64,000 bases of DNA from an uncultured bacterium (GTDB lineage Bacteria > Patescibacteriota > Minisyncoccia > Phycocordibacterales > Phycocordibacteraceae): positions 1,399 to 65,398 of the forward strand of contig CAIJZI010000006.1 of the NCBI GenBank assembly GCA_903825105.1, written 5' to 3'. Shown here piece after piece: positions 5,934-51,524 of the stretch (position 1 is its first letter; every line of letters starts with the position of its first letter). The notes under the pieces are model-generated. The model saw only the letters and a list, made by a program, of their open reading frames with translations. It searched no databases and was not told the origin of the DNA. A program made the translations under genes and the position numbers.

Positions 5934-5944
5934 ATAAACTCTGT

Positions 5945-32537: not shown

Positions 32538-32610
32538 TGGACCTGAGCGGACTTGAACCGCTTACCTCGTCAATGCGAATGACGCGCTCTACCAGATGAG
32601 CTACAGGCCC
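32538..32610 (-). tRNA. tRNA-Ala (anticodon CGC)
   Basis: Minus strand: GGGCCTG-TA-GCTC-ATCTGGTA-GAGC-G-CGTCA-TTCGCAT-TGACG-…-GCGGTTCAAGTCCGC-TCAGGTCC-A. Has the G3:U70 pair. Confidence 0.7.
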
Positions 32611-32968: not shown

Positions 32969-33000
32969 ACTGCCGTCTACTAGTATACCGCACTTGAGGG

Positions 33001-33249: not shown

Positions 33250-33259
33250 TACATAAAAT

Positions 33260-33769: not shown

Positions 33770-33796
33770 CATAGTAATTACCGCTCGTATTGTATA

Positions 33797-34966
33797 ATGA
33801 ATCAGAATTCTTTTAATCAAAATTACTTATTAAACATGAATAAACCATCCGCTTTCCAAACCCAATATCCTTTAAGTCAGAAGAAGTTTTGGAAAAAAAT
33901 AATACCTAGTTTTATCTTTTGGTTTATTATTTCGGTTGGACTTGCGATCTTTCAAATAATTTTTGTCACACAGCTTTTTGGCGCATCAGATCTGATAGAC
34001 ATGGCTAATTTTATAAATATATCTCTCTTGGTATTTTATAGTGTAGTCGTAGTCTCTTTTGTAATCTATATTTTTTATATTAAAGCCTACATAAAAAGAT
34101 ATTATTACGATTGTGGTGATCAGTTTGTCACAATCAAAAAAGGCGTCTTCGCCCCAACTGAAATTCATGTTCAATATCAAAAGATTCAGGATGTTTATGT
34201 GGATCAAGACTTATGGGATAGAATAATGGGGCTTTATGATGTTCATATCGCAAGCGCCACTGTGACTTCTGGAATTGAAGCTCATATCGATGGGGTAAAT
34301 GTAGATGTGGCGGAAAATTTAAAAAATATAATTCTAGAGAAAATTCATGGCGGGAATAATCCACCATCTATACAAGCAAGTAGCGGTCAGCCACAAAGTC
34401 AACAGTCGAGCTCTGTTCAATTTGCTCAAAAAATTTCAAGCGATACATATCCTATCGACGGCGCGTGGGTAGTCTCAATGCTTGGCAGTTCTTTGTTTTC
34501 TGGGATCATTTGGTCTCTTATTATCATAGGCTGTTCTCTAGGTAATGTAGATTATCATTCTACTTCGATTTTTTTGATATTATTTTTGTCACTATTATTA
34601 ATAATATTTTTTTTCCGTCTCGTTTATTTGTTAATTTGGAAAAAGAATTACTATTTTGAATTTATGCCGGAGTATATCTTGCTTCGCACGGGAGTGATTA
34701 GTAAATCAGAAAATCACTTACCATATAAATCAATCCAGAATGTTTTAAATAAGCAAAGTATCTTAAATAGAATATTGGGATTATCAACTGTGATAATTCA
34801 AAACGCTGCACAACAAATGGTTTCTTCTCGCGGGCAAGCAATCGGTCAAGGATCCGCCATTTCTCTCGTTTGGCAACCTAAAGATAAAGCGGAAGAATTA
34901 AGCAATATGCTAAATGAAATTGTTACTAAAGCAAATGCTCAAAATTCAAATAGTATGGGGTTGTAA
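33797..34966 (+). CDS. YdbT-like membrane protein with two bacterial PH (bPH_2/DUF304) domains
   Basis: TM hairpins followed by 'FVTIKKGVFAPTEIHVQYQKIQDVYVDQDLWDRIMGLYDV', then again 'ILLRTGVISKSENHLPYKSIQNVLNKQSILNRILGLSTV'. Gene is AT-rich. Confidence 0.55.
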   Translation: MNQNSFNQNYLLNMNKPSAFQTQYPLSQKKFWKKIIPSFIFWFIISVGLAIFQIIFVTQLFGASDLIDMANFINISLLVFYSVVVVSFVIYIFYIKAYIKRYYYDCGDQFVTIKKGVFAPTEIHVQYQKIQDVYVDQDLWDRIMGLYDVHIASATVTSGIEAHIDGVNVDVAENLKNIILEKIHGGNNPPSIQASSGQPQSQQSSSVQFAQKISSDTYPIDGAWVVSMLGSSLFSGIIWSLIIIGCSLGNVDYHSTSIFLILFLSLLLIIFFFRLVYLLIWKKNYYFEFMPEYILLRTGVISKSENHLPYKSIQNVLNKQSILNRILGLSTVIIQNAAQQMVSSRGQAIGQGSAISLVWQPKDKAEELSNMLNEIVTKANAQNSNSMGL

Positions 34967-35003
34967 GATAATAACGAAAATCATTAATAATTATATCTAA
35001 CAT

Positions 35004-35711
35004 ATGCTTAACACTTACATAAGCATCTTTAAAAAATATACCGTTTTTGACGGCCGTGCAGGGAGAAGGGAATATTGGATATTTATGCTCACGAACATCG
35101 TTCTCTATTTTTTTATTGAGTTTGTATGCAACGTAATTGCTCTTTCTACGGAAATAATGTGGATTACCGATCTCTCGTATCTCTTTGTGTTAGTAATCCT
35201 TCTCCCGAGCCTTGCGGTACAGGTGCGCAGACTTCACGATACGAATCGTAGCGGATGGTGGATATTAATCGGTCTGGTGCCGCTTTTTGGCGTAGTAGTG
35301 CTATTAGTGTTCGGATTGTTGGATGGTGAATCCAAAAATAATACACATGATTCTCTTATCACACAAAATGGAATAACCGGAATAAATTCCGTGACACCCC
35401 TGAATTCAGTTGTTCCTATTCAAAAAACAGGTTCACCGCTATCAAAGATCACGGCGATTACTTTTAGCGTCATCGCTTTCATTGCTTCTGGCGTCCATAT
35501 CTTGTTCGCTTTGGTATTCATTGTTTTTTGTGACAGTGGACCCGTGTCTCGATGTCTCAAATTTTCTAGTGTAGCGATGCTCTTTTGTTTGACGGAAGTT
35601 TCGGTGGCTATCACTGCTCTGGTGATGGTGAACAAAAAAACAAAGCTTGCATTACTTCTTTCTCTGCTTTCTATGATAATAGCTTTAGGATCTTTGGCAT
35701 TATTAAATTAA
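35004..35711 (+). CDS. DUF805-family inner-membrane protein with extra C-terminal TM domain
   Basis: 'FDGRAGRREYWIFMLTNIVLYFF' (GRxxRxEYW motif) and 'RLHDTNRSGWWILI'. Confidence 0.55.
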   Translation: MLNTYISIFKKYTVFDGRAGRREYWIFMLTNIVLYFFIEFVCNVIALSTEIMWITDLSYLFVLVILLPSLAVQVRRLHDTNRSGWWILIGLVPLFGVVVLLVFGLLDGESKNNTHDSLITQNGITGINSVTPLNSVVPIQKTGSPLSKITAITFSVIAFIASGVHILFALVFIVFCDSGPVSRCLKFSSVAMLFCLTEVSVAITALVMVNKKTKLALLLSLLSMIIALGSLALLN

Positions 35712-35712
35712 T

Positions 35713-36135
35713 ATGAAAAAGTTTTTAAATAAAACATTCAATCTCGCGGGTCTTTTAAGAGGGTTTTTAACAGGGGTAACGATCGGGCTGCTTCTATTCT
35801 TTCTTATAATTATTATCGGAGGATTAAAAGTAATTGAATCTGACGCTATATCTTTTATCTTTTACACAGTAACATTTCTTCCGGCTATCATTTTAGCGAT
35901 TTTAAAAGCGCGATCCAGCCCTGCTAAAATAAGCGAAGGTATTAAAAGATGGGTTGACTCAACAAGATCAGTTACCAATCTTAGTTTCGCCGCTGGTTCT
36001 GGGTTTGCGGATTCACTATTCCCAGAACAAATTACCATCAAGAGATTTCTTATAGAAACAATTTATTGGTTAAGCATAATAGCTTTTGTTATCTGTTTGA
36101 ATATGGCGGCATACTATGTGTACAGTAATCAATAA
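35713..36135 (+). CDS. Hypothetical membrane protein
   Basis: Four hydrophobic segments. Start is adjacent to the previous stop (operon). Confidence 0.4.
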   Translation: MKKFLNKTFNLAGLLRGFLTGVTIGLLLFFLIIIIGGLKVIESDAISFIFYTVTFLPAIILAILKARSSPAKISEGIKRWVDSTRSVTNLSFAAGSGFADSLFPEQITIKRFLIETIYWLSIIAFVICLNMAAYYVYSNQ

Positions 36136-36398
36136 TTAATCATCATTCTGAATTTATTTTTCTTTTTAAACAAAAACAAGCATTTAAAGCGCAAATAGTG
36201 TAAATTAAAAAGATGTTGAAAATTGGCATAGTGTGAACACTATCTGCCATCACTCTGGGTTAGAAAGAGAGAAACGCATCCCATTTTCATTTGTTATCAA
36301 GCTCCCTCCTCCGGATCATCGGACGGTAAAGCGAGCATTAAGAGAACTTCCTGTTTCCTAACCCTATATACCGTCAGGAAGCAGGAAGATGGTTCGGG

Positions 36399-37556
36399 TT
36401 GTGGCATACTTTTCCTATGGAGACCAAAACTCCTATCGAGCCATCCCTTCGTGCTCGTCAGCATTATTCCGATTTGTACGACAAGCACACGGTCGAGCAT
36501 TGCCGCTGGTGGGAGCAACATTCTCCGACGGTCGAGGATCTGAGGAAGGGCTGGACCAAGAAGGATAAGAAATTTGATGAGAAGGAGGCGCTGCGCACAG
36601 CCAATGCCTTTGGTCGTATGCACATGTATTTCATTAAGGGCGACCGTTATATCAAGAAAGACCAGACAATTAGGGAATGGATGGAGAGAGACGAGCAAAG
36701 AGACCGATTCTTTGAGGCCGCTAGTGCTCCCGAGAATATAAACTGTTTGACCTGCGGACGGCTCATGTTTGTGGGTTCAAAACATCTCCATAGCGGAGGA
36801 TTGAAGGAGCCCGATCGCATTCTATTTTTCTACGAGTGTCCGCTAGAGCATTTTCCGCTCAGAGCTTTCTATGACAATGGTGAGGAATTCAGGCGAGAAA
36901 AACCTCTTTGTCCCAAGTGCGGTGCAGCAGTTGTAGAGGAAGACAAAACTGCCGATGAGAAGTTCACCACCATCATCACCTGCTCAAAATGTGGCCACAC
37001 GGAGACGAGCGAGATAGAGCGTACGGTGAATAAGCCAGATCCGAACTTTGATAGAGATCGTGCTCGCTTTTGCCTAACAGAAAAAGAAGGCCAAGAATTT
37101 ATCCAAGGCCAAGAGAACATTAAAGGGCTAGCAAAGCTCATGGATGAAATAGAAGAGAAAAAGAAGCATAAGGATACCTATGACAAGGTGGCAAAATTAA
37201 AGAAGCTGAAAATCATTGAACTCGAAGAGTTGCTCACCCCTGTTCTCGAGAAGGCCGGGTACATCAAACTCCAGCTGAAGAACCCCGAGATCACCAAGGA
37301 CGTGATTGTTCCGTTTGTTGTGTATGAAAAGCGACCGGATAGAGAGGGGCGTGCAAGCACCTACGAGCTTGAGAAGCTTCTCAGGAAGACGCTCCTGGAG
37401 ACAAATTGGCGACTTATGACGGATGGCACAACTTACCGTTTGGGCATGCTAGAGGGGCGTTTTAGAGGCTATGAGAGGGAAGAAGACCTACTTGAGCTGG
37501 TACGGACCAAAGAAAAAAGAGAGGCGAAGCGAAAGAATGGTGAGGCTGGTAATTGA
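36399..37556 (+). CDS. Hypothetical protein with three CxxC zinc-ribbon-like pairs and a Lys/Glu-rich C-terminus
   Basis: 'CLTCGRLMF', 'CPKCGAAV', 'CSKCGHTE'. First gene of the accessory block. Confidence 0.45.
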   Translation: MWHTFPMETKTPIEPSLRARQHYSDLYDKHTVEHCRWWEQHSPTVEDLRKGWTKKDKKFDEKEALRTANAFGRMHMYFIKGDRYIKKDQTIREWMERDEQRDRFFEAASAPENINCLTCGRLMFVGSKHLHSGGLKEPDRILFFYECPLEHFPLRAFYDNGEEFRREKPLCPKCGAAVVEEDKTADEKFTTIITCSKCGHTETSEIERTVNKPDPNFDRDRARFCLTEKEGQEFIQGQENIKGLAKLMDEIEEKKKHKDTYDKVAKLKKLKIIELEELLTPVLEKAGYIKLQLKNPEITKDVIVPFVVYEKRPDREGRASTYELEKLLRKTLLETNWRLMTDGTTYRLGMLEGRFRGYEREEDLLELVRTKEKREAKRKNGEAGN

Positions 37557-37833
37557 GAGATTTCTACGGATTTACGTCCGAAACGAGGCTTTACAGGCAC
37601 TTTTATCCTAATTAATCTGAATCAATCCGAAAAAAGTGAGCATTTAAGCCGTATTCAAAAACCACAGTTTAAGAAAAAGTGCTCAAAAAGGCACTTTTAC
37701 TGCTATTTTCGTGTAAAAAACGTGTATTTTTGTGTCATTTTTTGCTACTTTTAACCACTCAGAGAAGTGACGTTATAAAACACATCATGCACAAAATTGG
37801 TGTCAAATATGGAAAAGTCCTATACTTCTTGTA

Positions 37834-39915
37834 ATGGACACAAACGGCAAGTATCTGAGAACGACTCTCGAAGCGCTTCATTTGGAAGATGCGACAGAAG
37901 TTGCAGAGACCACAAGAAATGCTTCTAACATAGTTGGTGCAATAATTTCTGCTTATGGTGGCACCACTGAGATCGGAATAGATCGTATAGCAGTTCCTCC
38001 CGGTCCTGCAACAGGGTTGGTTTATGGCCGTATACAGAGTGGTAAAACTCGAGCTATGATCGCAAGTACTGCTCTGGCTTTTGATAATGGTTTCCGAATC
38101 TCAATAGTGATGACGAGTAACATTAATGATCTGGTAAGTCAGACACATCTAGATTTTTCAAGTGGATTGCCAGGCGTGATGACTTTTACGAAGGACAATG
38201 ATTTCGACAAAGAAGTTGCAAATACAAAGGTCCAAATGGAAAAAGGTGATGCACGACTGTTGATCGTTTGTTCAAAGGGCGCGGGAAGTCTCCAAAACGT
38301 TTCTGCTTTCCTCAGAACTATAGGAGGCGAAAATTATCCAGCAATAATTTTTGACGACGAAGGAGATCAGGCTTCCTTAGATACTAACACTCATCGTCGT
38401 TCCTCTGGTGCTGCGCTTGCTCCGAGTAGTATAAATCAAATCATTCAGTCGCAACTTCGAATCGCATTAACACGTCATGTGTACGTAAGTGTGACAGGAA
38501 CACCACAAGCTGTCCTTCTTCAAAGCGCTGATGCTAGTCATCGCCCATCATTTATTGTTATGTTGCCTCCAGGTGCTTCCTATATCGGCGGCGACCACTT
38601 CTTTGGGAAAGACGAGCCGGAAGATAATGAAGACCATCTCGTTAGTATTATCGAGCAAAACGAGAAGGAAGAAATTCTCAATGACGCCGCGCCTATTCCT
38701 AACGGACTACGACGCTCAATCCTATTTTTTCTTATAGCTTCTGCAGCAGCTATCAAAAATAAAGGTCCTCAGGAAAAGGGTTATTCCTACCTGTGCCACC
38801 CTAGTCTTAAAAATATTGAACAGGATCGTGCTGAAGCTAGAATAAACACGTTTCTCACTGAGATTACTGAAACATTGCTGGATAATAATGAGAACGCAAT
38901 TCTTCGAGAATTACGAGAAGCTTATGAGGAGTTAAAACGGACGCTTGGAGAAGAGACTCCAAATTTTGATGAACTGAAAGGGATTGTACGTCAACAATTG
39001 GCAACACGACGACTGCTGGTGATTAACGCAAAAATAAAACGCCAGGGTATCGCATACGGGGGAGGACTGAATTTCCTTATAGGAGGTAACACTCTCGGAA
39101 GAGGTATCGCCGTAAAAAATCTTCTCGTAACCTACTACGTACGCGATTCCAAAATGTCTCAGATTGATACTATGCACCAGCACGCTCGTATGTACGGGTA
39201 TCGTTCTGCAACCCTGAAATATACAAAGCTGTATATTCCGCGTCATCTGTACTATAGATTCCGTGACATTCATTTTTCTGATACTGATCTTCGGAACTTT
39301 ATTGATGCTCATAAAGATGACCTCCCGTCGTCTTTCCCAGTCGAGTACACAAATGTCTTAAGAGCAACCCGTCCTAGTGTATTGGATGCTGATAAGACTG
39401 ACACACTACGACCCGGTCTTCAGATCTACCCTAATTATGTGGTCGTTCCTCAGCCTTCGATTAAATACGCGAATGTGCTAACACGTATTCGTTCGCACCT
39501 CGGTTTTACTACTGAGCTAGAGAATGCAATGGCGGAAACTGGTCGGGCAGGAGTCACCATAACAAGAGACGAGGCTATTGAGCTTGTAGAGATGATAAAG
39601 ACGCGATCACAAAATACGTGGCGTGATAAAACTATTGGGGCCGTTATAACAAAAGTCGCCGAGAGAATGGGAGATAGTGTGACTTTGAAGTTTAGAACCG
39701 CAGAGCGTACTGTCCGCGAAGACGGCTTTATGTCGACTGGTACATTGTCTGGTGATGAACTGACACAGGCACGTGGGGCTACCATACCCACACTATGGAT
39801 CATGGCTGTACACACGACACCGGATAGCGCCGCCGGTGCTGGCCAACAGTTTATGTATCCCACTTTTGTGATACCCGAGAGTCTTGGTAGCCTTTTCATT
39901 TTCAACAAAGGGTAG
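37834..39915 (+). CDS. Z1-domain-like P-loop protein (a family often found next to Dcm-type methyltransferases)
   Basis: 'GLVYGRIQSGKTRAMIASTALAFDNGFRISIVMTSNINDL' Walker A-like motif; 'AIIFDDEGDQASLDT' DE(G)D Walker B-like motif. 693 aa. The Z1 assignment is from memory of the Pfam Z1 pattern and needs an HMM check. Confidence 0.5.
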   Translation: MDTNGKYLRTTLEALHLEDATEVAETTRNASNIVGAIISAYGGTTEIGIDRIAVPPGPATGLVYGRIQSGKTRAMIASTALAFDNGFRISIVMTSNINDLVSQTHLDFSSGLPGVMTFTKDNDFDKEVANTKVQMEKGDARLLIVCSKGAGSLQNVSAFLRTIGGENYPAIIFDDEGDQASLDTNTHRRSSGAALAPSSINQIIQSQLRIALTRHVYVSVTGTPQAVLLQSADASHRPSFIVMLPPGASYIGGDHFFGKDEPEDNEDHLVSIIEQNEKEEILNDAAPIPNGLRRSILFFLIASAAAIKNKGPQEKGYSYLCHPSLKNIEQDRAEARINTFLTEITETLLDNNENAILRELREAYEELKRTLGEETPNFDELKGIVRQQLATRRLLVINAKIKRQGIAYGGGLNFLIGGNTLGRGIAVKNLLVTYYVRDSKMSQIDTMHQHARMYGYRSATLKYTKLYIPRHLYYRFRDIHFSDTDLRNFIDAHKDDLPSSFPVEYTNVLRATRPSVLDADKTDTLRPGLQIYPNYVVVPQPSIKYANVLTRIRSHLGFTTELENAMAETGRAGVTITRDEAIELVEMIKTRSQNTWRDKTIGAVITKVAERMGDSVTLKFRTAERTVREDGFMSTGTLSGDELTQARGATIPTLWIMAVHTTPDSAAGAGQQFMYPTFVIPESLGSLFIFNKG

Positions 39916-39961
39916 GATTGTCCCTCTCGAGTTTTCTCCCAATTAGTTCTATAATGGGCAC

Positions 39962-41050
39962 ATGACAGCCAAGAGCTCGCTAAAGAAGAGTGACGTAAAA
40001 ATAGTTGATCTATTTTGTGGAGTTGGCGGTTTAACACACGGCCTCATTCTTGAAGGGTTGGACGTTGTTGCTGGTGTCGACAATGATGAATCCTGTCGCT
40101 TCGCTTTCGAGAAGAATAATTCCTCTGAGTTCATATACAAAGATGTTGCTGAGTTTTCAGCCAAAGAACTTCGGCGTCTTTATGCCGACGCCCCCATTAA
40201 AGTTCTTGTGGGTTGTGCTCCATGTCAACCATTTTCTACAATGAATCGAACAAAGAACACAGCTAAGGATCGAAAGAAGCGGTGGGGTCCTCTCTATCAC
40301 TTCATGGCACTTATTAAAAACACGCATCCCGACGTTATTTCCATGGAGAATGTCCCGGATCTAGCAAATACAAAAAAATATCCCGTGTTTGGTGAATTTC
40401 TAAAGACTCTAAATACGGAAGGCTATAATGTGGAGTACCGTGTTGTTGATGTGTCACGATATGGAGTACCTCAGAAACGAAGAAGGTTAGTACTTCTTGC
40501 TTCATTGCTTGGAGATATATCGTTGATTCCAGAAACTCACGATAAGGATAACGCTGTGACTGTACGCGAAACTATAGGCCATCTGCCTGCAATTAAAGAT
40601 GGTCAAGTCCATAAGGACGATCCTCTTCACTGGGCAAGTAAACTTAGTGAGACCAATAAGAAAAGAATTGTAGCCACTCCAAAGAACGGAGGGAGCGCGA
40701 AGAGCTGGAGCAAGGAGTTGGTCCCAGATTGTTACACACGGGAAAGTGGGAAAGGGTATATGTCGACTGTGTATGGAAGAATGCGATGGGATGATGCTTC
40801 TGCCACAATAACTACACACTGCACAACATTGGGAGCTGGACGATACGGACATCCAAAACAAAATCGTGCAATTTCTTTGCGAGAAGCAGCATTGTTGCAA
40901 AGCTTTCCTGAATACTATGAGTTTGAACGACCAGAGAATATTTCTATGGTTAAAACAGCGCGGCATATAGGGAATGCCGTGCCAGTCTTGCTAGGGCGTA
41001 CCATAGGGAAAAGCATTAGAAAGCATATCGAAGAACATCTTGCGGCTTAA
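39962..41050 (+). CDS. dcm: DNA (cytosine-5)-methyltransferase
   Basis: Motif I 'DLFCGVGGLTHG', motif IV 'GCAPCQPFS', motif VI 'ISMENVPDL', motif VIII 'QKRRRLVLL', motif X 'IGNAVPV'. Confidence 0.85.
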   Translation: MTAKSSLKKSDVKIVDLFCGVGGLTHGLILEGLDVVAGVDNDESCRFAFEKNNSSEFIYKDVAEFSAKELRRLYADAPIKVLVGCAPCQPFSTMNRTKNTAKDRKKRWGPLYHFMALIKNTHPDVISMENVPDLANTKKYPVFGEFLKTLNTEGYNVEYRVVDVSRYGVPQKRRRLVLLASLLGDISLIPETHDKDNAVTVRETIGHLPAIKDGQVHKDDPLHWASKLSETNKKRIVATPKNGGSAKSWSKELVPDCYTRESGKGYMSTVYGRMRWDDASATITTHCTTLGAGRYGHPKQNRAISLREAALLQSFPEYYEFERPENISMVKTARHIGNAVPVLLGRTIGKSIRKHIEEHLAA

Positions 41051-41175
41051 TCGTGGACCTATCACCGACCTCCCTCAGAGATGATGGTGGAGTATACAAC
41101 TTGTGTTCTCGAATGACCTCGATTATTTATACAATCGCGCAAAATGTCATAAACGGCCTTTTCTGCTAGGATTAC

Positions 41176-42168
41176 ATGAACATGGCTTTGTTCAAGATAA
41201 ATGGCTCGGCAGTGAGGAAATTGGCCGCTAAAGACCTCGATTTAGAGAAGCATCTTCAGGCACTCTTTGAAGGAAATCTTGATGAGCTCTTAAACATAAG
41301 TTTCCTGGCCCACGAATATTCCACGAGTTCTGGTGGGCGGATCGACACTCTCGGTATCGATAAAAATGGCTCGCCTTGCATCATCGAATATAAACGAGGA
41401 CAGGACGATAATGTCATAAACCAAGGACTTTCATATTTACTGTGGCTTCTTGACCATAAAGCTGATTTCGAGAAACTTGTCGCAGAGTCGTCACACTTAC
41501 AACTTGAGGAAGTGATAGCGGAACAAGATTTACGTAACGGAGATGCTGTTCCTGTAATGAAGAAACGCGCGCCGTCAATCGACTGGGATTCGCCGCGAGT
41601 GATTTGCATTGCAGAAAGCTATAACAAATTCGATCTTGATACCGTCGATATATTGCCGATTAAGGTGGAGCTTTTCCGCTATCGCATATACGACGACAAT
41701 ATTCTATATCTCGAGCCAGAGAGTCACAAAAAAGTCCGTGTCTCAACGTCTAGCATTGTTCGCAAAGAAAAGACTGTTAAGGATAAGGAGACACAGCTAC
41801 AAAAGAGTTACTCGGTCGATGATCATCTTGTTGGTGTTAATCGAGATACGGTGACGCTTTTTCAGGCACTCCGGGAACAAATTCTATCGCTCGATGAGGA
41901 AATCCGAGAAGAACCCATGAAGTTCTATATCGCCTATAAATTGGCCACGAATTTTCTGGATATCGAGCTCCATAAGAATGATATGAAGCTTTTTCTTAAT
42001 ATAAAGACAGGACAACTAGATGACCCGTATGGTCTAGCTCGTGACATGGAAACGCCGAAGCATATTGGGCACCACGGTAATGGTGACTACGAAATTAAGC
42101 TTGAGAGAGCAGAAGATTTAGATAAAGCATTCGCTTTGGTTAAACAGAGCTATGATTTGAATAAATAG
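41176..42168 (+). CDS. PD-(D/E)xK-fold nuclease-like protein (restriction endonuclease-like/DUF91-like N-terminal domain) with unknown C-terminal domain
   Basis: 'GGRIDTLGIDKNGSPCIIEYKRG' fits a D…(E)xK nuclease core. The stop is 1 nt before the next methyltransferase gene. Confidence 0.5.
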   Translation: MNMALFKINGSAVRKLAAKDLDLEKHLQALFEGNLDELLNISFLAHEYSTSSGGRIDTLGIDKNGSPCIIEYKRGQDDNVINQGLSYLLWLLDHKADFEKLVAESSHLQLEEVIAEQDLRNGDAVPVMKKRAPSIDWDSPRVICIAESYNKFDLDTVDILPIKVELFRYRIYDDNILYLEPESHKKVRVSTSSIVRKEKTVKDKETQLQKSYSVDDHLVGVNRDTVTLFQALREQILSLDEEIREEPMKFYIAYKLATNFLDIELHKNDMKLFLNIKTGQLDDPYGLARDMETPKHIGHHGNGDYEIKLERAEDLDKAFALVKQSYDLNK

Positions 42169-42169
42169 T

Positions 42170-43243
42170 ATGGAAGCCAAAGTTTTAAATACAGGCCTTA
42201 ACAAAGCTGGTCAAGCAAAGAAAGATGAGTTTTATACTCAGCTCGTTGATATTGAAAAGGAACTGAAGCACTACAAAAGTCAGTTCCGTGGCAAAGTGGT
42301 GTATTGCAATTGCGACGATCCATTCGAGAGCAACTTCTTTAAATATTTTGCCGCCAATTTCAACGCACTCGGGTTGAAGAAACTTATCGCCACGAGTTAC
42401 AAGCCGTCTCCCATAGCAAACACGCAGTTGGGTTTATTTGGCGACATCAAAGCGTTAGACACCCCCAAAGGCCGCCCTAAAGTAACCGCTAACAAATTCA
42501 TTATCAATGAAGTTGATGATATAGACGGCGACGGAGCTTTTGACTTGCGTGATATTGCCGAGCAGCTCAAGGCTAATAAAAACAACGAATGGGCTCCATT
42601 AGAAGATGAGGGGGATTTTAGAAGCAAAGAAAGCATAGAACTGCTAAAGCAAGCTGATATTGTTGTAACAAATCCACCGTTCTCCCTTTTTCGTGAGTAT
42701 GTTGCACAGTTAATGGAACACGGTAAGAAGTTTTTGATTCTTGGTAATCAAAATGCCATTATCTACAAAGAGGTTTTTATGTTCATTAAAGAAAACAAGT
42801 TATGGCTTGGTTATGACAACGGCGGTACAAAGTGGTTTCAGGTTCCCAATGACTATGATATTCAAACCGAATCGAGAATTAAAACTGAAAACGGTGTGAA
42901 ATATTTCAGTATGGGTAGCGTTGTTTGGTTTACAAATCTTGATACCACAAAACGTCACGAGGAGCTGACGTTATACAAGAAATACAGCCCAAGAGAATAT
43001 CCAAAGTACGACAATTACGACGCAATTGAAGTCTCGAAATATCTCGACATCCCTATGAATTACGATGATGTGATGGGAGTGCCTATCACTTTTCTTGATA
43101 AATATAATCCAAATCAATTTGAGATCATTGGCTCAAACCGTGGCATCGATCAGGATTCGAAAGGGGTATACGGCAGGGGGTCTTTTTTGAAAGGCAGAGA
43201 AACTTTTAAGCGAATTTTTATCAAAAACAAAAATGTAAAATAA
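42170..43243 (+). CDS. N6-adenine DNA methyltransferase, EcoRI-methylase-like
   Basis: 'KKDEFYTQLVDIEKELKHYKSQFRGKVVYCNCDDPFESNFFKYF' and 'IVVTNPPFSLFREY' (NPPF motif IV). Confidence 0.6.
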   Translation: MEAKVLNTGLNKAGQAKKDEFYTQLVDIEKELKHYKSQFRGKVVYCNCDDPFESNFFKYFAANFNALGLKKLIATSYKPSPIANTQLGLFGDIKALDTPKGRPKVTANKFIINEVDDIDGDGAFDLRDIAEQLKANKNNEWAPLEDEGDFRSKESIELLKQADIVVTNPPFSLFREYVAQLMEHGKKFLILGNQNAIIYKEVFMFIKENKLWLGYDNGGTKWFQVPNDYDIQTESRIKTENGVKYFSMGSVVWFTNLDTTKRHEELTLYKKYSPREYPKYDNYDAIEVSKYLDIPMNYDDVMGVPITFLDKYNPNQFEIIGSNRGIDQDSKGVYGRGSFLKGRETFKRIFIKNKNVK

Positions 43244-43248
43244 TCAAT

Positions 43249-44340
43249 ATGAAAATCGAACCACATCAAATCCCAATACGCGAAGTAGTTGCCGACTATA
43301 GGGACAGCGATGAAGAGGGAGTTGTTGCTTACGGTGGCAAGCTTGATGTACGTCCGAAATATCAGCGGGAATTTGTGTATAAACCTGAACAGCGCAATGC
43401 TGTATTGCACTCCGTCCGGCACCAGTTTCCTCTCAATATTATGTATTGGATAGAAAATAGCGGCGGGAATTACGAAGTGCTTGATGGTCAGCAACGCACT
43501 TTAAGCATTTGTCAGTACGTTAATGGCGACTATTCAATCAATGATCGCTATTTTCATAACCTTACAAAAGAGGAGAAGGATCAGATATTGGACTACGAGC
43601 TCATGATTTACTTTTGTGACGGCACAGACAAAGAACGTATCGAGTGGTTTGATGTCATAAATACAGCAGGTGAAAAGCTCACGCCGCAAGAATTACGTAA
43701 CGCCGTTTATACCGGTCCGTGGCTTTCTGATGCAAAACTCAAATTCAGCAAAAGGAACTGTGTAGCATATTTACTTTCTAACGATGGTGGGCAACTAATC
43801 AGCGGAGATACAATTCGTCAAGAATACCTGGAAACCGCGCTCTCGTGGATAAACAACGGTGAAGTGGCGGACTACATGGCGAAGCATCAGCATGATAAAA
43901 ACGCTAACGACTTGTGGGAGTACTTCCAAAACGTCATCGCGTGGGTGCGCAAGACGTTCCCGAATCATCGCAAAGAAATGGCAAGCGTGAATTGGGGCGA
44001 GTTGTACAACGAGTTCAAAGATGAAAACCTGGATGCCAAGAAACTAGAAGCCGAGGTTGCGAAGCTGATGCAAGATGAGGACGTGACAAAGAAATCAGGG
44101 ATCTATCCATTCTTACTCACAAGGCAAGAAAGGCATCTTTCAATTCGCGCTTTCAATGACAAGATGAAGCGCGAGGCGTACGAGAGGCAGAATGGAATCT
44201 GCGTAAAATGTGAAGAGCGTTTTGTGATAGAAGAAATGGAAGCCGACCACATAAAGCCGTGGCACGAAGGCGGCAAAACCATCGCCGAGAATTGCCAGAT
44301 GCTATGCAAGCAAGATAATCGGACGAAGTCGGGAAAATAA
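43249..44340 (+). CDS. DUF262 (ParB/GmrS-like NTPase) – HNH endonuclease fusion; GmrSD-like type IV restriction candidate
   Basis: '[13 protein letters not shown]' DGQQR motif. C-terminal '[40 protein letters not shown]' HNH motif. Confidence 0.75.
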
Positions 44341-44345
44341 TATTT

Positions 44346-45623
44346 ATGAATGAAATCATCTGCCCACATTGTAAAAAAGCTTTCAAAATTGATGAGGCTG
44401 GCTTTGCTGACATATTGAAGCAAGTGCGAGACCGTGAGTTTGATAAGGAGCTACACGACCGCCTTGAGTTATTGGAAAAAGACAAAGAAAACGCTGTAAA
44501 GCTTGCTGAAGCAAACATCAAGAATGTCTTGCAAGCTGAAGTTGCCAAGAAAGACACTGAACTCGCAGAGCTAAAAGCTCAGAAAGATGCTCTTGTTGGT
44601 GAACTTAAGGCAGAGAAGGATACCGAAATTGCTCGCTTGCAAGCGAGGGTTGAGTCTGCTGAGACCGAGAAGAAGCTGGCCGTCACGGAAGCGGTGGTCA
44701 AGGTTGAAAAGGAGCGTGATAGGTTATCAGGCGAATTGAAGAATAAAGATACTGAAAAGCAGTTGATCGAGACCTCGCTTAAGGAGAAATTTACAGCGGA
44801 GCTCAAGACTAAGGACGACATCATCCGGCACAAGGATGAGGAAATCGCGTTGCGCAAGGATATGAAACTACGGCTTTCTACAAAAATGATAGGTGAGACT
44901 CTCGAGCAGCATTGCGAGACGGAGTTCAATAAGCTTCGCGCAACAGCCTTTCAAAATGCGTATTTTGAAAAGGACAACGATTCTAAAACCGGTAGTAAGG
45001 GCGATTATGTATATCGCGAGAGTGACCCGGATGGCAACGAGATCGTCTCTATTATGTTTGAAATGAAGAATGAGGGTGATGAGACCACCACAAAACACAA
45101 AAACGAGGACTTTCTGCGCGAACTCGATAAGGATCGTACAGAGAAAAAATGCGAATATGCTGTCCTCGTGTCGTTACTGGAGGTAGAAAATGAGCTATAC
45201 AATACCGGCATTGTCGACGTTTCCCACAAGTACCCCAAAATGTATGTGGTTCGGCCGCAGTTTTTCATCCCCATAATCACACTTTTGCGCAATGCAGCAA
45301 TGAACTCTCTCAAATATAAGGCAGAGCTTGCTCTCGTACGAAATCAGAATGTTGATATAACCAACTTTGAGGAGAACATGAATAACTTTAAGGAAGGCTT
45401 TTCAAAAAATTACGAGCTTGCCAGCCGTAAATTCAAAACCGCGATTGAGGAAATCGACAAAACCATTGAACATCTACAGAAAACAAAAGATGCGCTCGTG
45501 TCGTCTGAAAATAATCTTCGTCTTGCCAATAACAAAGCAGAAGATCTGACCATTAAGAAATTGACGCGGGGAAACCCCACGATGACAGCTAAGTTTGAAG
45601 AAATTTCTGATACCAATAAGTAG
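44346..45623 (+). CDS. DUF2130-family coiled-coil protein
   Basis: '[36 protein letters not shown]' is the characteristic DUF2130 N-terminus, followed by a long coiled coil. Confidence 0.65.
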
Positions 45624-45718
45624 CAAGCGCGTTCTTGCTTAATCCGGCGTCGGAAATTATTAAAACTTGCGGGACTGGACCTGGGCGATACGTTAGAGAT
45701 TTGACAGGCAAGGTGATT

Positions 45719-46087
45719 CTAATAGGGGATTCCCTTCTCGACGTTTCCAGGCGGGAGCAGATTCTGTACCCGTTCGTTTTGAATTATTGAGGTGTGAGTG
45801 AACCACATCATGAGGGCTAAAAAGAAGACCCACACATATGTGAAGGTGAAGTCTTTATTCATATCTTTCTTGCCTTCGAAGTATGACCTCCAAAAGAAGA
45901 AAAGAATGAAAACGAGAGCGACGAGCTGCAATGGTCGACCAATAGAATCATGCACCACATCCACTACGAGTATGAAATAGCTCAGGGCGATCGTACCAAC
46001 CCATGTGGCGATTAATGCCAGAATCTCTCGCTTGAGCTCCTCCTGAGCCTTTTTAGCCTTGAATTCGTCCAAATTGGTCGTACCCAT
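45719..46087 (-). CDS. Small three-TM membrane protein
   Basis: 122-aa hydrophobic ORF; no motif recognised. Confidence 0.35.
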   Translation of the reverse strand: MGTTNLDEFKAKKAQEELKREILALIATWVGTIALSYFILVVDVVHDSIGRPLQLVALVFILFFFWRSYFEGKKDMNKDFTFTYVWVFFLALMMWFTHTSIIQNERVQNLLPPGNVEKGIPY

Positions 46088-46122
46088 ATGACAAGTATAC
46101 TTGGTAGAAGGATAGTTGTCAT

Positions 46123-46359
46123 TTGCCCATACTCAGAGGTATGGGGAAGCACCCGCCAATCGTGCCTAAATTCGCCAGGAAGCTCAGGAGCGAGCGTGAA
46201 GAACGTGGTTTTAGCCAAGAGTCTTTAGCGACCGCAGCAGGCCTGAGCCGGAACTACATAGGCATGATTGAACGTGGGGAGTCCAATCTTACTCTCGGTA
46301 CAGTCGAGAGGCTGGCACGAGCTCTTCGTATGGAGAGTTGGGAACTTCTCAAATTTTGA
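46123..46359 (+). CDS. XRE-family helix-turn-helix transcriptional regulator
   Basis: 'FSQESLATAAGLSRNYIGMIERGESNLTLGTVERLARAL' is the HTH_XRE consensus. Confidence 0.65.
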   Translation: MPILRGMGKHPPIVPKFARKLRSEREERGFSQESLATAAGLSRNYIGMIERGESNLTLGTVERLARALRMESWELLKF

Positions 46360-46368
46360 TAGTCTATC

Positions 46369-47151
46369 TTGATGCCGGTCGACAAAGACATCCTGGGTAT
46401 AACCGACCAGCTTCCTGAGCCGAAACAAAGGATATTTCTAACACTCACTAAATTTATACAAGCTCGTCAGAGGCGTGCTGCTGGAACGAAAAAACTTCGT
46501 GCAATTGCCATTGAGGATTTTGCAGATACTGAAATTACGGAGACAGACATTTGGCACTTTCTTGAAATTTTACGGAAGGTTTATCGCACTGTACAAGAAC
46601 CGCCGATCACAAGTGTGCTTACGGTTCATAAGTCATTGCCAAATCCCGGGATCACTTCTGGCCCCGATGGAAAGAAATATGCCACTGGCCTAGAGCCGGA
46701 AGTTATTACAAAAATTTACGAGCTTCTACTCGAAAAGTTTGGTGAAATCAAACCAGTATTCACAAAGGTTGAAAAACCGATCGTACAGGAGATTGTAATG
46801 CCGGGTTCGCGCTACCCATTGCTTATTGCAGATGACAACAGGGGGTATCTAAAATTTTATAAAGAAGGCCGTCGAATAGATATCGGTAAAATTACTGGCA
46901 GAAAATATCTTTTACTTTCCGTACTCATGAAGCCTCTTGGAACAGCTCGCACTATTGATTCAGTCTTTGATGTCATTTCGCAACCGAAGGACTGGCGTGA
47001 TTCCGACTTAAAAGACGCGTATAGAAGCGATTTTCGAAAACGCGAGCTCATAGACTATGCAATAAAGGATTTACAGAAGATTAAAGGTCTCACGGGTAAA
47101 ATAACCCTCCGCAATTACGGCAAAGATAAAATTGCACTAAAACTTGGTTAG
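46369..47151 (+). CDS. Hypothetical protein of the mobile-element module
   Basis: 260-aa ORF immediately downstream of the XRE gene. Confidence 0.4.
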   Translation: MMPVDKDILGITDQLPEPKQRIFLTLTKFIQARQRRAAGTKKLRAIAIEDFADTEITETDIWHFLEILRKVYRTVQEPPITSVLTVHKSLPNPGITSGPDGKKYATGLEPEVITKIYELLLEKFGEIKPVFTKVEKPIVQEIVMPGSRYPLLIADDNRGYLKFYKEGRRIDIGKITGRKYLLLSVLMKPLGTARTIDSVFDVISQPKDWRDSDLKDAYRSDFRKRELIDYAIKDLQKIKGLTGKITLRNYGKDKIALKLG

Positions 47152-47299
47152 AGGGTTTTAAAACACCGAGCTCATGGGAGCTTCGGGCTCTTTCGTGGAA
47201 GCCTTATTTCTAGGCGTATTTTTGACACAAAATTAGAGAAATCCCTCTCAATCCCTCTGATTCAAGCTGAGTGAGAGGGTTCTATACGCTCGGTCTCAT

Positions 47300-47608
47300 A
47301 TGACCAAAAATATAAAAGCAGGTGCGGAAGAAAGTGAACTTAATAAGGAAGTGCGAAAGTTCTTTCCAAAAGACTTGGATGTAGGGCTTGTTGAGTTTAG
47401 TGGCGCAGAAGATCGGCCGGTTCTACGAGCTGAATATGAGGCCAACATGTGCCCTTGCCCCACGTGCACGACAGACCCGATCTGTACTTGCGGGTCGTTG
47501 GGAGTAAATGGCCCGTGCAGCACATGCGTACCTGACTGCGTTTGCAGTGACGCAGATTATTATCACCCTTGTCCTTGCGACACGTGTGCCTCACAAGACA
47601 TCGTATGA
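47300..47608 (+). CDS. Small Cys-rich protein
   Basis: 15 Cys in 'CPCPTCTTDPICTCGSLGVNGPCSTCVPDCVCSDADYYHPCPCDTC'. Its stop overlaps the next start (ATGA). Confidence 0.4.
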   Translation: MTKNIKAGAEESELNKEVRKFFPKDLDVGLVEFSGAEDRPVLRAEYEANMCPCPTCTTDPICTCGSLGVNGPCSTCVPDCVCSDADYYHPCPCDTCASQDIV

Positions 47609-49497
47609 AGCCGCTCACTCAAAGCGAATTCATTGCGTTGTTTCCTCACACACGCTTCCGTTACATACATGATGTAAAGAAGCTGGTCGTGCAGGGGAGC
47701 GATTCGCTCGATTCATCATGGAATGAAAAGGGGTACGGCGTTTTCTATACCGTCAACGGGTTTCCATCCACCGGTAAAGCTGACGAATCACGCCTGCTGT
47801 CTCTCAATGCAAATTATGTCGACTTCGATGTTGATGCGAGCTTGTCTCAAGAAGAGAAAGAAAAGCTTATCCAAGAGACGCTCATGTCTGGTCTCGAGTC
47901 CGGCGCTCCAACGCCAACGATTGTAAATCGCACCCAGAAAGGCGCGCACCTTATCTGGCTCTATCCGGAACCACTTGAGCCAACTTCTGAGAATGTTGCG
48001 AAGTGGCGTCAGGTGCAGAAGCGAATGGTGCAGTGCTTTAAGGGCGATCCGGCAGCAAAAGATCCTTCTCGAGTGCTCCGCGTTCCGTATACGCTCCACT
48101 TGAAGAATCCCGCGAATCCTTTCGAAATCAAGATTGCCTCATACAAGCCTGACGCACGCTTTACGCTGGAGGAGCTAGATGTGTCAGCTCCGCAGTATGC
48201 GGAACTCGAAGCTGACGAGAAAGTCCCAGCAAAGGACTTGCTGACGCAGGGAGTGGAAATCGGTAAGGGGCAGCGACACACGTCGATGGCACAAGTCGCT
48301 GGATTGTTGCTCAAGGACGCAACAACACTGGAGCATGTCCGGAATGCTCGGTTGGCTCTCTATGGATGGGACAGAACCGTGGTGAAGTCACCCGAGCCTT
48401 TCCAACAGCGTAAGTCGGAATTGGATAGCACGATAGACGGGATATGGAAGCTTGAACTTGAGCGCAGAACAAAAGACGAACCGCAAAAGGATTCCCCAAA
48501 GACATTTCGCTTGTGGAGCCTCGCCGAGATATTGGGTCATGACTTTGGTGAAGAGCAGTGGCTTGTAGAACCCCTGATCACCAAACAGGGAATAACGGCG
48601 CTCTCTGGTAATCCAGGTGACTACAAGACCTGGAATGCAATCCATATCGCACTCTGCGTAGCGCGAGGTGGTCTCGTATACGGAAAATTCCAAGCGACTC
48701 AGGGCAGTGTCCTCATTATTGACGAAGAAGATCATCTTCGTTTGATAAAAGGTCGCTTGGAACTACTTGGTGCGAACGACACCGATTCGATTAGCTACAT
48801 CTCGCAAGGTGGTTTCAAGGCAGACGATAAAGATGCGCTCGCAGCTGTTCTTGAAATCGTTAAAGAGAAGGACATCAAACTCGTTATCCTTGACTCGCTC
48901 GTGCGTATTCACCAGCAAGATGAGAACGACGCGATGGGCATGGCTAAGGTCTTCAGTAGCATCCAACAGCTGATTGGCGCGGGCGCATCCATTCTCTTCA
49001 CTCACCATCATCGCAAGCAACAGGGCTTGGGGAATCACAACCCCGGACAGAGCATGCGGGGCTCGTCTGACATCCTCGCGGCTGTAGATTCGCATCTCAC
49101 CATCGAGAAGAAACGTGACGACAAGGATAGTTTGGTTATTACGCAAACGAAGTCGCGGCAGGCTGAGGCGCTCACACCGTTTCAGATCCATCTGCTCAAA
49201 GGGCCGTCAGGTCCCTCGGGGTTTGAGTATGTAGGCGAATACGATGAGAAGAAACTCAAGGCTGCTGAAGTTGCAGCTTCAATCGTCTTCTTGCTTGCGG
49301 ATGGACAAAAGAGCCGTCCAGAAATACATGAGGCTCTCAATGAGGATTTTGGGAAATCGGCGATAGATAGCGGTCTCAAAATCGCAGAAGGAGAGGGGAC
49401 CGTTGTCCGTGTCCCCAAAGAAGAACTTTCTCCTGAGGAACGCCGCAAAACCCACTATCGTCTCCCAGGCGTGTCTTCGAGTCCGGCCGTCGAATAG
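47605..49497 (+). CDS. Primase-polymerase (Prim-Pol) N-terminal domain fused to RepA/DnaB-like AAA_25 helicase domain
   Basis: 'YGVFYTVNGF…NYVDFDVD' is a Prim-Pol DxD motif. 'ALSGNPGDYKTWNAIHIALCVARG' Walker A-like motif; 'LVILDSLVRIHQQDENDA' Walker B. Confidence 0.6.
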   Translation: MKPLTQSEFIALFPHTRFRYIHDVKKLVVQGSDSLDSSWNEKGYGVFYTVNGFPSTGKADESRLLSLNANYVDFDVDASLSQEEKEKLIQETLMSGLESGAPTPTIVNRTQKGAHLIWLYPEPLEPTSENVAKWRQVQKRMVQCFKGDPAAKDPSRVLRVPYTLHLKNPANPFEIKIASYKPDARFTLEELDVSAPQYAELEADEKVPAKDLLTQGVEIGKGQRHTSMAQVAGLLLKDATTLEHVRNARLALYGWDRTVVKSPEPFQQRKSELDSTIDGIWKLELERRTKDEPQKDSPKTFRLWSLAEILGHDFGEEQWLVEPLITKQGITALSGNPGDYKTWNAIHIALCVARGGLVYGKFQATQGSVLIIDEEDHLRLIKGRLELLGANDTDSISYISQGGFKADDKDALAAVLEIVKEKDIKLVILDSLVRIHQQDENDAMGMAKVFSSIQQLIGAGASILFTHHHRKQQGLGNHNPGQSMRGSSDILAAVDSHLTIEKKRDDKDSLVITQTKSRQAEALTPFQIHLLKGPSGPSGFEYVGEYDEKKLKAAEVAASIVFLLADGQKSRPEIHEALNEDFGKSAIDSGLKIAEGEGTVVRVPKEELSPEERRKTHYRLPGVSSSPAVE

Positions 49498-49689
49498 CTA
49501 TGGCAGGTCGCTCGGCAAAGCAGGATATGGAAGTCCTCTACAAAGAGGCTGATGCTTTGTCGGAGCACGAGCATGACTTGGACGCCGCATTCGATTTGCT
49601 CTTTGAGAAAGTACTGAAGCGGCGGATGGAGTTGTCCACAACGCCTCTTCACAAAGAAATGACAACTGTGTATAATTAAGCATATCACT

Positions 49690-49884
49690 ATGGCCATCAA
49701 ATTTCTTACCAGAGAGGAAGTGGGAACTTATCTGCGAGTTAATCCTCGGACCGTTGATCGCTGGCTGAAGAAAGGTCTCTTGAAAGGCTACAAGCTCGGG
49801 AAGGGTTCGACTTCAATGTGGCGAATACCGGAGAGCGAGATAGAGAAATTCCTCAAGAAACACGCTAACAAGAAAACACAATGA
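49690..49884 (+). CDS. Excisionase/MerR-like HTH DNA-binding protein
   Basis: 'LTREEVGTYLRVNPRTVDRWLKKGLLKGYKLG' matches the HTH_17/Xis pattern. Overlaps the recombinase start by 4 nt. Confidence 0.55.
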   Translation: MAIKFLTREEVGTYLRVNPRTVDRWLKKGLLKGYKLGKGSTSMWRIPESEIEKFLKKHANKKTQ

Positions 49885-51524
49885 ATGATTCCGCATCAAA
49901 ACCAATACGACTCATTTCGATATATGCTCGTGTCTCAACTGCACGGCAAGAGGAAGACGGCACTATTGAAACTCAATTAGCGGCAGTACGTGAATACGCC
50001 AAGAAGAACGAGTACACCGTGGTGAGAGAGTATGTCGACGAAGGATGGAGCGGAGACACACTCAAACGTCCAAATCTGGATGAGTTGCGGCAGGATGCAA
50101 AGGACAAGCTTTGGGACGGGGTTTTGTTTTATGATCCGGACCGGCTTGCGCGTCGATATTCATATCAGGAGCTCGTTATGGATGAGCTCAAAGAAGCTGG
50201 GGTCGAAGTCATGTTTGTTACAGTGCCTGCCCCTAAAAATAGCGAGGATAAAATACTCCACGGGGTGCGAGGGCTTTTTGCCGAATATGAGCGAACGAAA
50301 ATTGCTGAGCGATTTCGTCTGGGTAAGCTGCGTTCAATAAAGGAAGGTCACATCATTGCGAGCCGCCCTCTGTATGGGTACACCCGTGTTGTCAGAAATG
50401 GTAATGAGCAGGGTTACTACGTTATTAACGAAGAAGAAGCGGTCGTCGTGAGAAAAATCTTTGCCTGGATTGCCAACGGGGGACTAACCATTCGGCAAGT
50501 CGTTCGAGAACTGCAAGTACTCGGTATTAAGCCGCAGCGAAGTAAGCGTGGCGTCTGGAGCACAAGTACTCTAACGACCATGCTCCGTAACGAGGGCTAT
50601 ATTGGAAGAGCGCATTGGTATAGCTCTGTTGCTGTAGAACCTAAGAACCCGATTAGTAAAGAAAAGTATAGAAAGATAAAGAAAAGCAGCACAAAAAAGC
50701 GACCCAAAAGCGAGTGGATGTATGTCGCCGTCCCAGCAATCGTTGACGAGGAGTTGTTTAATCGGGCAGGCTCTAGACTCACCGAGCACGCTACGCTCAA
50801 CCCTAGAAGCAAGAAATATGAGTATTTGCTGGGAGGAAAGATTAAATGTCCGTGCGGACAGAAACGAATTGGAGCTGGGCGAAAGCTCGGTCAATATCTC
50901 TACTACGACTGTTGCGATAAGGTCTTGTGTTTTCCGCTCCCGAGAAAGTGTTACGAGCAGGCTATAAATGCACGAATCGCGGATAAGCTGGTCTGGGCAA
51001 AACTATCTGATCTTATGAGTTCGCCCGACCTGCTCACGAAGCAAGCGGGTCGGTGGGCAAAGGCGCGACAAGACAAAGCCAAAGTGTCAGTTGGTGATAG
51101 TGCCGGAATGGAGAAGCAAATCGCTAAATTGAAGGAGGAACAAGAGCGGTACACAAAAGCCTACGGTTCAGGTGTCTTCACTATGGAGCAGCTTAAGGAG
51201 TACACAACCCCTGTACGTGAGAAAATAACCTCCCTCGAAACACAAATCTCAAAGGTTCAGCAGGCGGTGCGACGAGTCGATCTCGAGGCTCCGCCAACTG
51301 AGAAGGAGATAGAAGCTTTTGCAAAAGAGGCTCACGAAGCTTTGCTCGACTTGAATTTCCAAGAGAAACGAGCAATAGTGCTTTATACCGTAGAAGAAAT
51401 CATTGGCACCCAGCAGCAGTTGCAGGTGTCCGGATACATCCCGGTAACAACTACTAATGGCTGGTACAAAACTAAAGATAGGAATCGTCGGACTGCCGAA
51501 TGTTGGGAAGTCGACATTATTTAA
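49881..51524 (+). CDS. Large serine recombinase (integrase)
   Basis: Resolvase catalytic domain 'IYARVSTARQEEDG…'; recombinase domain; zinc ribbon 'CPCGQK…CCDKVLC'; coiled-coil C-terminus. Last 68 nt overlap ychF. Confidence 0.85.
   Translation: MNDSASKPIRLISIYARVSTARQEEDGTIETQLAAVREYAKKNEYTVVREYVDEGWSGDTLKRPNLDELRQDAKDKLWDGVLFYDPDRLARRYSYQELVMDELKEAGVEVMFVTVPAPKNSEDKILHGVRGLFAEYERTKIAERFRLGKLRSIKEGHIIASRPLYGYTRVVRNGNEQGYYVINEEEAVVVRKIFAWIANGGLTIRQVVRELQVLGIKPQRSKRGVWSTSTLTTMLRNEGYIGRAHWYSSVAVEPKNPISKEKYRKIKKSSTKKRPKSEWMYVAVPAIVDEELFNRAGSRLTEHATLNPRSKKYEYLLGGKIKCPCGQKRIGAGRKLGQYLYYDCCDKVLCFPLPRKCYEQAINARIADKLVWAKLSDLMSSPDLLTKQAGRWAKARQDKAKVSVGDSAGMEKQIAKLKEEQERYTKAYGSGVFTMEQLKEYTTPVREKITSLETQISKVQQAVRRVDLEAPPTEKEIEAFAKEAHEALLDLNFQEKRAIVLYTVEEIIGTQQQLQVSGYIPVTTTNGWYKTKDRNRRTAECWEVDII

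Follow-up and report, generated by a model that had tools for sequence, protein, structure and literature searches.

A putative Type II-like restriction-modification pair with a DUF262-HNH nuclease, and a probably independent DUF2130 gene, in a patescibacterial genome

The window analyzed here is a stretch of 64,000 nucleotides (nt) from an uncultured bacterium of the family Phycocordibacteraceae (Patescibacteriota; assembly GCA_903825105.1, contig CAIJZI010000006.1, forward-strand positions 1,399 to 65,398), and our subject is a string of three genes that follow each other closely on its + strand. The first (42170-43243, +) encodes an EcoRI-family N6-adenine DNA methyltransferase, the putative modification (M) subunit, recognized with both Pfam and PADLOC. 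The second (43249-44340, +), also assigned with Pfam and PADLOC, encodes a protein of 363 amino acids (aa) with an N-terminal DUF262 and a C-terminal HNH domain (hereafter DUF262-HNH), a putative Type II-like restriction endonuclease or R subunit. The third (44346-45623, +) encodes a protein of 425 aa assigned by Pfam to DUF2130, with an N-terminal CxxC, a long coiled-coil-like helical region, a putative PD-(D/E)xK-type core, and C-terminal helices. The methyltransferase stop codon is separated by 5 nt from the start of DUF262-HNH, and another 5 nt lie between the DUF262-HNH stop and the DUF2130 start (TAA-TATTT-ATG). A preliminary description of this DNA, made from the letters alone, had placed the second and third open reading frames (ORFs) and the 5-nt gap between them correctly; by framing the locus as two genes, it began one gene late and missed the EcoRI-family methyltransferase.

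The identity of the first two proteins is well defined at the level of domains. The methyltransferase matches the Pfam profile EcoRI_methylase (PF13651) over positions 2-344 of 345 (E = 2.3e-137) and the PADLOC model MTase_II PDLC03297 over its full length (E = 2.9e-122), and an NPPF motif is visible in its translation. In DUF262-HNH, residues 34-154 match GmrSD_N/DUF262 (E = 1.7e-19), with part of the profile skipped, and residues 318-361 match HNH (PF01844; E = 2.3e-11), bearing out the domain calls of the preliminary description. The DGQQR motif of the DUF262/ParB-like domain (residues 79-83; 43483-43497, +) is invariant in an alignment of homologues (A3) that includes relatives down to 34-38% identity, and the residues of the HNH catalytic core and its Cys4 zinc site (44200-44319, +; C318, C321, D333-H334, N348, C349, C353, and N357) are all invariant both in that alignment and in another one (A4). 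The C-terminus is a classical Cys4 HNH, matched only by the PF01844 HNH and HNH_5 profiles, and no Pfam match to DUF1524 (GmrSD_C) was obtained in this protein at E ≤ 0.01. Residues 1-363 align with positions 1-372 of the curated, 372-position PADLOC model REase_II PDLC03418 (E = 5.3e-129), and PADLOC placed the protein among the Type II restriction endonucleases, not with its GmrSD/BrxU models. In an AlphaFold2 (AF2) model, the mean predicted local distance difference test score (pLDDT) is 53, and the HNH alone is confidently modeled, with pLDDT values of 86-94 for residues 300-330; a sequence search of the PDB returned a generic HNH (4h9d, E = 1e-3) as the sole match.

DUF262-HNH has more than 8000 homologues, mostly in Patescibacteria, and the M-R pairing is also annotated on plasmids of Firmicutes, Proteobacteria, Actinobacteria, and Bacteroidota, where the Prokaryotic Genome Annotation Pipeline (PGAP) labels the DUF262-HNH members merely as "DUF262 domain-containing protein." For statistics of gene linkage, we used 80 loci from metagenomes, with R proteins 75-84% identical to that of the window, and 80 from a collection of viral contigs, with R proteins 51-76% identical; 64 of the former carry at least 1.1 kb of upstream sequence, and 74 of the latter have enough of it. 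An EcoRI-family methylase lies immediately upstream of R in 62 of the 64 metagenome loci, typically at a gap of 7 nt, and within about 1.2 kb of R in all of the viral-collection loci (74/74), being directly upstream in 70. This methylase linkage, the full-length PADLOC matches, and the lack of DUF1524 make it most likely, on sequence grounds, that DUF262-HNH serves as the R subunit in a Type II-like restriction-modification (R-M) module of wide occurrence. In such a module, the methyltransferase would mark the host DNA with N6-methyladenine (m6A), and DUF262-HNH would cut unmarked DNA through its Cys4 HNH active site, with the DUF262 domain probably supplying DNA binding or clamping and/or nucleotide-dependent control. 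As a separate observation, across loci L081-L160 the methylases are 54-87% identical to that of the window and the nucleases 75-84%, and the M and R identities correlate only weakly; the greater divergence of the methylase, together with the weak correlation, suggests that methylase or specificity modules may be exchanged within this R-M family.

The pair resembles classical Type II R-M systems that combine an HNH nuclease with a gamma-class m6A methylase in its tightly linked M and nuclease genes, the full-length match to PF13651, the intact Cys4 HNH, and its occurrence on small plasmids and mobile elements. Unlike in those systems, however, the nuclease starts with a DUF262/ParB-like domain containing DGQQR, a domain more familiar from Type IV enzymes stimulated by nucleoside triphosphates (NTPs). 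To our knowledge, the named Type IV DUF262 enzymes have no cognate methylase. These enzymes, GmrSD, BrxU, and SspE, belong to a family of Type IV and PT-dependent nucleases with DUF262 and DUF1524 domains; they are described as acting on modified DNA, and they share with DUF262-HNH the two-domain layout of an N-terminal DUF262 with DGQ(Q/H)R and a C-terminal nuclease of the His-Me-finger type (PMC12707154). DUF262-HNH differs from them in being methylase-linked, in ending with a PF01844 Cys4 HNH rather than DUF1524, and in being much shorter, at 363 aa. The ParB-like DUF262 domain, usually a hallmark of Type IV enzymes, would thus also form the N-terminal part of a restriction enzyme that is linked to a methylase and is very common in Patescibacteria (the candidate phyla radiation, CPR), on plasmids, and on phage-like contigs, and the label "GmrSD-like" for DUF262-HNH genes should await a check for an upstream methylase.

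The DUF2130 protein matches its Pfam family (PF09903) over residues 152-408 with E = 1.5e-88 and 296.9 bits, against a gathering cut-off of 26.7, in agreement with the preliminary description, and has no match among the PADLOC models. Residues C6, C9, H189, C190, D220, E239, K241, and E270 are invariant in the family alignment, as is the N-terminal segment with CPHC, which had been singled out before. The long coiled coil reported in the preliminary description agrees with two long helices predicted by AF2 at residues 17-151 and 156-200, with pLDDT up to 90 (44394-44945, +, for residues 17-200). They are followed by a putative PD-(D/E)xK nuclease core (residues 205-320; 44958-45305, +) with D220 (45003-45005, +) and E239-x-K241 (45060-45068, +), for which a beta-beta-beta-alpha-beta order is predicted at a pLDDT of about 55. 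DUF2130 was counted among the PD-(D/E)XK families in a 2012 census (PMC3424549), and judged by its conserved residues, it is a D...ExK nuclease-like protein. A PDB sequence search returned only coiled-coil noise, an exact-sequence look-up of the window's own protein found no record, and the literature searched for DUF2130, COG4487, or PF09903 assigns no function to the family, as had been said of it from the start. We infer that it may be a metal-dependent DNA nuclease multimerized via the helical stalk, most likely acting as an autonomous or accessory enzyme in defense or in the processing of DNA breaks.

DUF2130 is a large family with a conserved core and a helical stalk of variable length. 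An exhaustive search with the core yielded 1516 clusters (50% identity), and the best 150 are 56-81% identical to it and 198-632 aa long; among these 150 representatives, the core is always C-terminal and the variation in length is confined to the N-terminal helical region, in which homologues of 513-571 aa carry insertions of 90-150 residues. Full-length identity is 59-88% in a set of 80 species from Patescibacteria, Bacteroidota, Proteobacteria, Actinobacteria, Firmicutes, and Campylobacterota. DUF2130 occurs in 74 of the 72,556 plasmid records searched; a search of 50,697 phage records gave no match. We note that such conservation is unusually high for a gene with a patchy distribution.

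The preliminary description had taken DUF262-HNH and DUF2130 for a two-gene system, a proposal that does not hold up against the distribution of the two genes. Enough downstream sequence is available for 60 metagenome and 67 viral-collection R loci, and DUF2130 follows R in 4 and 0 of them, respectively, being absent from 123 of the 127. Conversely, in 80 species-representative genomes with DUF2130, an M-R pair is found near it in 3/80 species-level loci, all patescibacterial, and no family is found among the neighbors of DUF2130 at more than 3 of 77 loci. The genes that follow R tightly elsewhere encode a KAP NTPase, an SMC-like ATPase, an SF1 or UvrD helicase, a Ser/Thr kinase, a serine recombinase, or a C5 methylase, and the position just downstream of R is a variable slot. 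Nor does the tight spacing, previously read as the sign of a system, set the pair apart: among the 44 pairs of same-strand neighboring ORFs in the window, the median gap is 32 nt and 39% of the gaps are 10 nt or shorter, so that a gap of 5 nt is ordinary in this DNA.

The close relatives of the window's DUF2130 occupy diverse positions. One that is 95% identical comes after an unrelated C5-methylase R-M system, with an overlap of 4 nt, and the second gene of that system encodes a protein of 506 aa in which a D...ExK-like motif was read by eye; when this locus (L169) is compared with the window by blastn, the only similarity is at 44345-45613, that is, in the DUF2130 ORF alone. A copy with 84% identity sits 4 nt behind an OLD-family ATPase-TOPRIM nuclease, and of two further close relatives, one is solitary and the other lies behind genes of unknown function. 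Three proteins with 91-93% identity are found in three different contexts, each within a cassette of an EcoRI-family methylase, DUF262/HNH, DUF2130, and an SMC_N-like protein of 733-740 aa (L165, 3801-9503; L170, 2702-8503; L171, 2904-8506); the SMC-like gene is absent from the window. Between L165 and L170, DUF2130 is 99% and the SMC-like gene 97% identical, whereas R and M are only 67% and 68% identical, and over ten linked loci the identities of R and DUF2130 are uncorrelated (Spearman rho 0.23, p = 0.13). In L001 (8951-13008), DUF2130 (10001-11290) and a T5orf172/MUG113 gene (11250-11915) stand between the methylase and DUF262-HNH, as if inserted. Collectively, the low co-occurrence, the lack of co-divergence, and the confinement of nucleotide similarity to a single ORF indicate that DUF2130 is not a fixed partner of R, and as far as these comparisons go, the R-M and DUF2130 modules recombine independently.

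The reading we favor, with a probability of roughly two in three, is that of an ordinary R-M pair next to an independent DUF2130. Two evolutionarily independent modules would have been packed together by chance in a defense island on an integrative element: an R-M pair without need of DUF2130, and DUF2130 as a free-standing cassette that would be widely passed between lineages, would be exchanged at ORF boundaries, and would recurrently become the trailing gene of nuclease-based defense operons. Several points weigh against this reading. The "Type II" label of the pair derives from the name of a PADLOC model and from gene linkage, and although two palindromes are depleted in the window (ACGT, with an observed-to-expected ratio of 0.33, and CATG, with 0.55), palindrome avoidance in the pooled M-R loci reveals several mildly depleted sites and none that is outstanding as a recognition site. 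The M-R-DUF2130 order is retained in differing genomic contexts at nucleotide identities as low as about 72%, and where DUF2130 occurs near M-R it never lies on the opposite strand and is in nearly all cases the next gene downstream, an arrangement that exceeds the expectation from random co-residence and makes an accessory role possible in a sub-lineage. Finally, for about three-quarters of DUF2130 genes, the immediate neighbors include no recognizable defense gene, many of them being metabolic or of unknown function.

Part of this evidence would fit a genuine three-gene operon of M, R, and DUF2130 in a sub-lineage of Patescibacteria, often followed by the SMC-like ATPase, in which DUF2130 would be an accessory. 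Besides the conserved order and strand, this rival can draw on the M-R-DUF2130 arrangement with gaps of about 6 nt in 3 of the 5 closest relatives looked up (at least 91% identity), in the three contexts described above, on the occurrence, in L010 and L044, of DUF2130 behind DUF262-HNH genes of a highly divergent subfamily (34-38% identity), on its trailing position behind HsdR, OLD, and another R-M system alike, and on a defense enrichment limited to the directly adjacent genes. We nonetheless consider such an operon unlikely. As 97% of M-R loci lack DUF2130, it is not required; R and DUF2130 do not co-diverge, either between L165 and L170 or over the linked loci as a whole; in L001, DUF2130 and its companion gene interrupt the pair; short gaps are usual in compact genomes; and the partners of DUF2130 are too heterogeneous for one specific protein-protein interaction. 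As such an accessory, DUF2130 could be a PrrC-like back-up or "guard" nuclease that is freed upon inhibition of the primary nuclease, or a processor of the breaks made by R. PrrC, in Type Ic hsd loci, and RloC are nucleases whose genes are embedded in restriction operons or stand last in them, without their products belonging to the R-M enzyme; both are anticodon nucleases with ABC-ATPase heads, and RloC also possesses an extended coiled coil bearing a zinc element. DUF2130 is similarly a nuclease-like gene at the end of restriction operons but lacks an ATPase domain, and the nuclease fold predicted for it differs from theirs.

The independence of DUF2130 from the R-M pair does not make its surroundings random. 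Gene-neighborhood statistics had been proposed as a check on its link to nuclease genes, and an association was found: we compared 120 genes at positions ±1 of DUF2130 in the species set with a control of 120 genes at ±4/5 of the same loci. Among the adjacent genes, Pfam identified 9 AAA_21, 7 AAA_15, 5 OLD-TOPRIM, 5 ResIII, 4 DUF4011/MTES_1575, and 3 HSDR_N domains. With PADLOC (E ≤ 1e-10), 165 families were matched at ±1, with up to 6 members per family (Old, AriA, GajA, Hhe, and PDC-S37), against 16 families with at most 2 members each at ±4/5. Tight upstream partners include Type I HsdR (L003 and L019) and OLD-family nucleases (L060, L061, and L065), Hhe-like helicase-nucleases follow DUF2130 in L006, L008, and L016, and plasmid copies lie in defense islands among dGTPase, methylases, and AAA proteins. 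Thus, of the link between DUF2130 and restriction that was raised in the preliminary description, the general part stands, in that the neighborhood is enriched in defense genes and DUF2130 trails R-M, HsdR, and OLD genes, whereas a fixed partnership with DUF262-HNH does not. This association holds as a tendency only. The notion of DUF2130 as a conserved anchor beside a hotspot of integration was also considered and rejected, since there is no conserved synteny on either side of it.

One recurrent arrangement is the one with OLD. An OLD gene lies 2-18 nt upstream of DUF2130 in L060 (8118-11392), L061 (6548-9613), L163 and L164 (both 4101-7281), and L161, a Citrobacter plasmid (NZ_CP056645; 6118-9410), a spread over Proteobacteria, Bacteroidia, Saccharimonadales, and enterobacterial plasmids; in L068, L078, and L037, OLD genes are upstream at larger gaps. 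The paired OLD proteins are mutually 22-34% identical, and the DUF2130 copies 60-85%. As described in the abstracts consulted, the OLD class scheme has a Class 1 that stands alone and a Class 2 paired with a UvrD-like helicase, and includes no DUF2130 partner; DUF2130 also goes unmentioned in the OLD literature searched. We entertain, as a tentative proposal that may well prove wrong, that DUF2130 is an unrecognized, widely transferred, defense-associated nuclease, acting either by itself or in promiscuous association, as the trailing gene, with nuclease-based systems (R-M systems of Types I and II and OLD-family nucleases). If true, DUF2130 might be a back-up effector or break-processing factor, and OLD with DUF2130 and DUF2130 with the SMC-like protein would be new two-gene defense systems.

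A further explanation, which we regard as improbable, dispenses with defense altogether and takes DUF2130 for a general recombination or repair factor analogous to RmuC, with an incidental adjacency to R-M genes. Its conservation, over both the whole protein and the core, indeed looks more like that of a housekeeping gene than of a fast-evolving immune gene, it is missing from the phage records, and most of its loci have no recognizable defense neighbor, with some neighbors being plainly metabolic or housekeeping (Tex, GH6, and an ion channel). Its layout recalls that of RmuC (PF02646), in which a PD-(D/E)xK-type core likewise comes after an extended helical region at the N-terminus, and both families figure in the same census (PMC3424549). 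The resemblance appears, however, to be architectural only: DUF2130 has an N-terminal CxxC, defense-gene neighbors, and no conserved chromosomal location, and a comparison of its alignment (A1) with E. coli RmuC by hhalign gave a probability of 0.1%, which, the profiles being shallow, is a weak negative. A repair factor would also sit poorly with the patchy distribution and the lack of conserved synteny in any lineage, with the copies in defense islands of conjugative plasmids, with the concentration of defense genes at ±1 relative to ±4/5, and with the precise swapping of the ORF between operons. Least probable is the original proposal of a Type IV-like modification-dependent nuclease with DUF2130 as its dedicated partner, which has in its favor the DUF262 domain common to GmrSD/BrxU/SspE-type enzymes (PMC12707154) and the 5-nt gap, and which the linkage statistics already largely refute, given a cognate-type methylase directly upstream in nearly all loci, a Cys4 HNH in place of DUF1524, a PADLOC assignment to Type II, and R loci that almost always lack DUF2130.

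Under the favored reading of two independent modules, the R-M pair itself is routine, and DUF2130, with about 1500 clusters at 50% identity and its exchange as a precise ORF between defense operons, is the more useful lead. We see it as an uncharacterized defense-island gene worth a modest follow-up, and the interest extends to its recurrent OLD and SMC-like partners.

The setting of the three genes is consistent with mobility. GC content is low (0.36-0.45) over approximately 33-47 kb of the window, and the low-GC island (about 32700-51524) is preceded by five clustered tRNA genes (30292-32610) and closes at its right end with the gene for a large serine recombinase (49881-51524, +; Pfam Resolvase and Recombinase), which is directly followed by the housekeeping gene for the YchF GTPase. 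Between DUF2130 and the recombinase are a XRE regulator (46123-46359), a 642-aa AAA_25 ATPase-domain protein (47569-49497), which is primase-like by position, with no primase domain detected, and an HTH_17 excisionase-like gene (49690-49884). The island is probably an integrative element with defense genes as cargo. Immediately upstream of the methyltransferase, ending 1 nt ahead of its start, is a gene for a NucS-like nuclease with DUF5655 (41176-42168, +; Pfam DUF5655, E = 1e-12, and NucS_C, E = 5e-4; PADLOC candidate PDC-S18, E = 3.3e-96). It was considered as a component of the R-M system and rejected, as no other M-R locus has it upstream of the pair; it is a separate, neighboring defense-candidate module. 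In a scan of 37-47 kb, promoter-like sites were no more frequent than in shuffled sequence, and no terminator-like site on the + strand was detected in any intergenic gap of the four-gene string.

Two minor features of the island may be mentioned. An ORF of 102 aa (47300-47608), which overlaps the start of the AAA_25 gene, is very cysteine-rich (CPCPTCTTDPICTCGSLGVNGPCSTCVPDCVCSDADYYHPCPCDTC) and has no Pfam match; it may encode a real small metal-binding protein or be spurious. The part of the island with the lowest GC content (33797-35711) encodes a bacterial PH-domain (bPH_2) protein and a DUF805 membrane protein.

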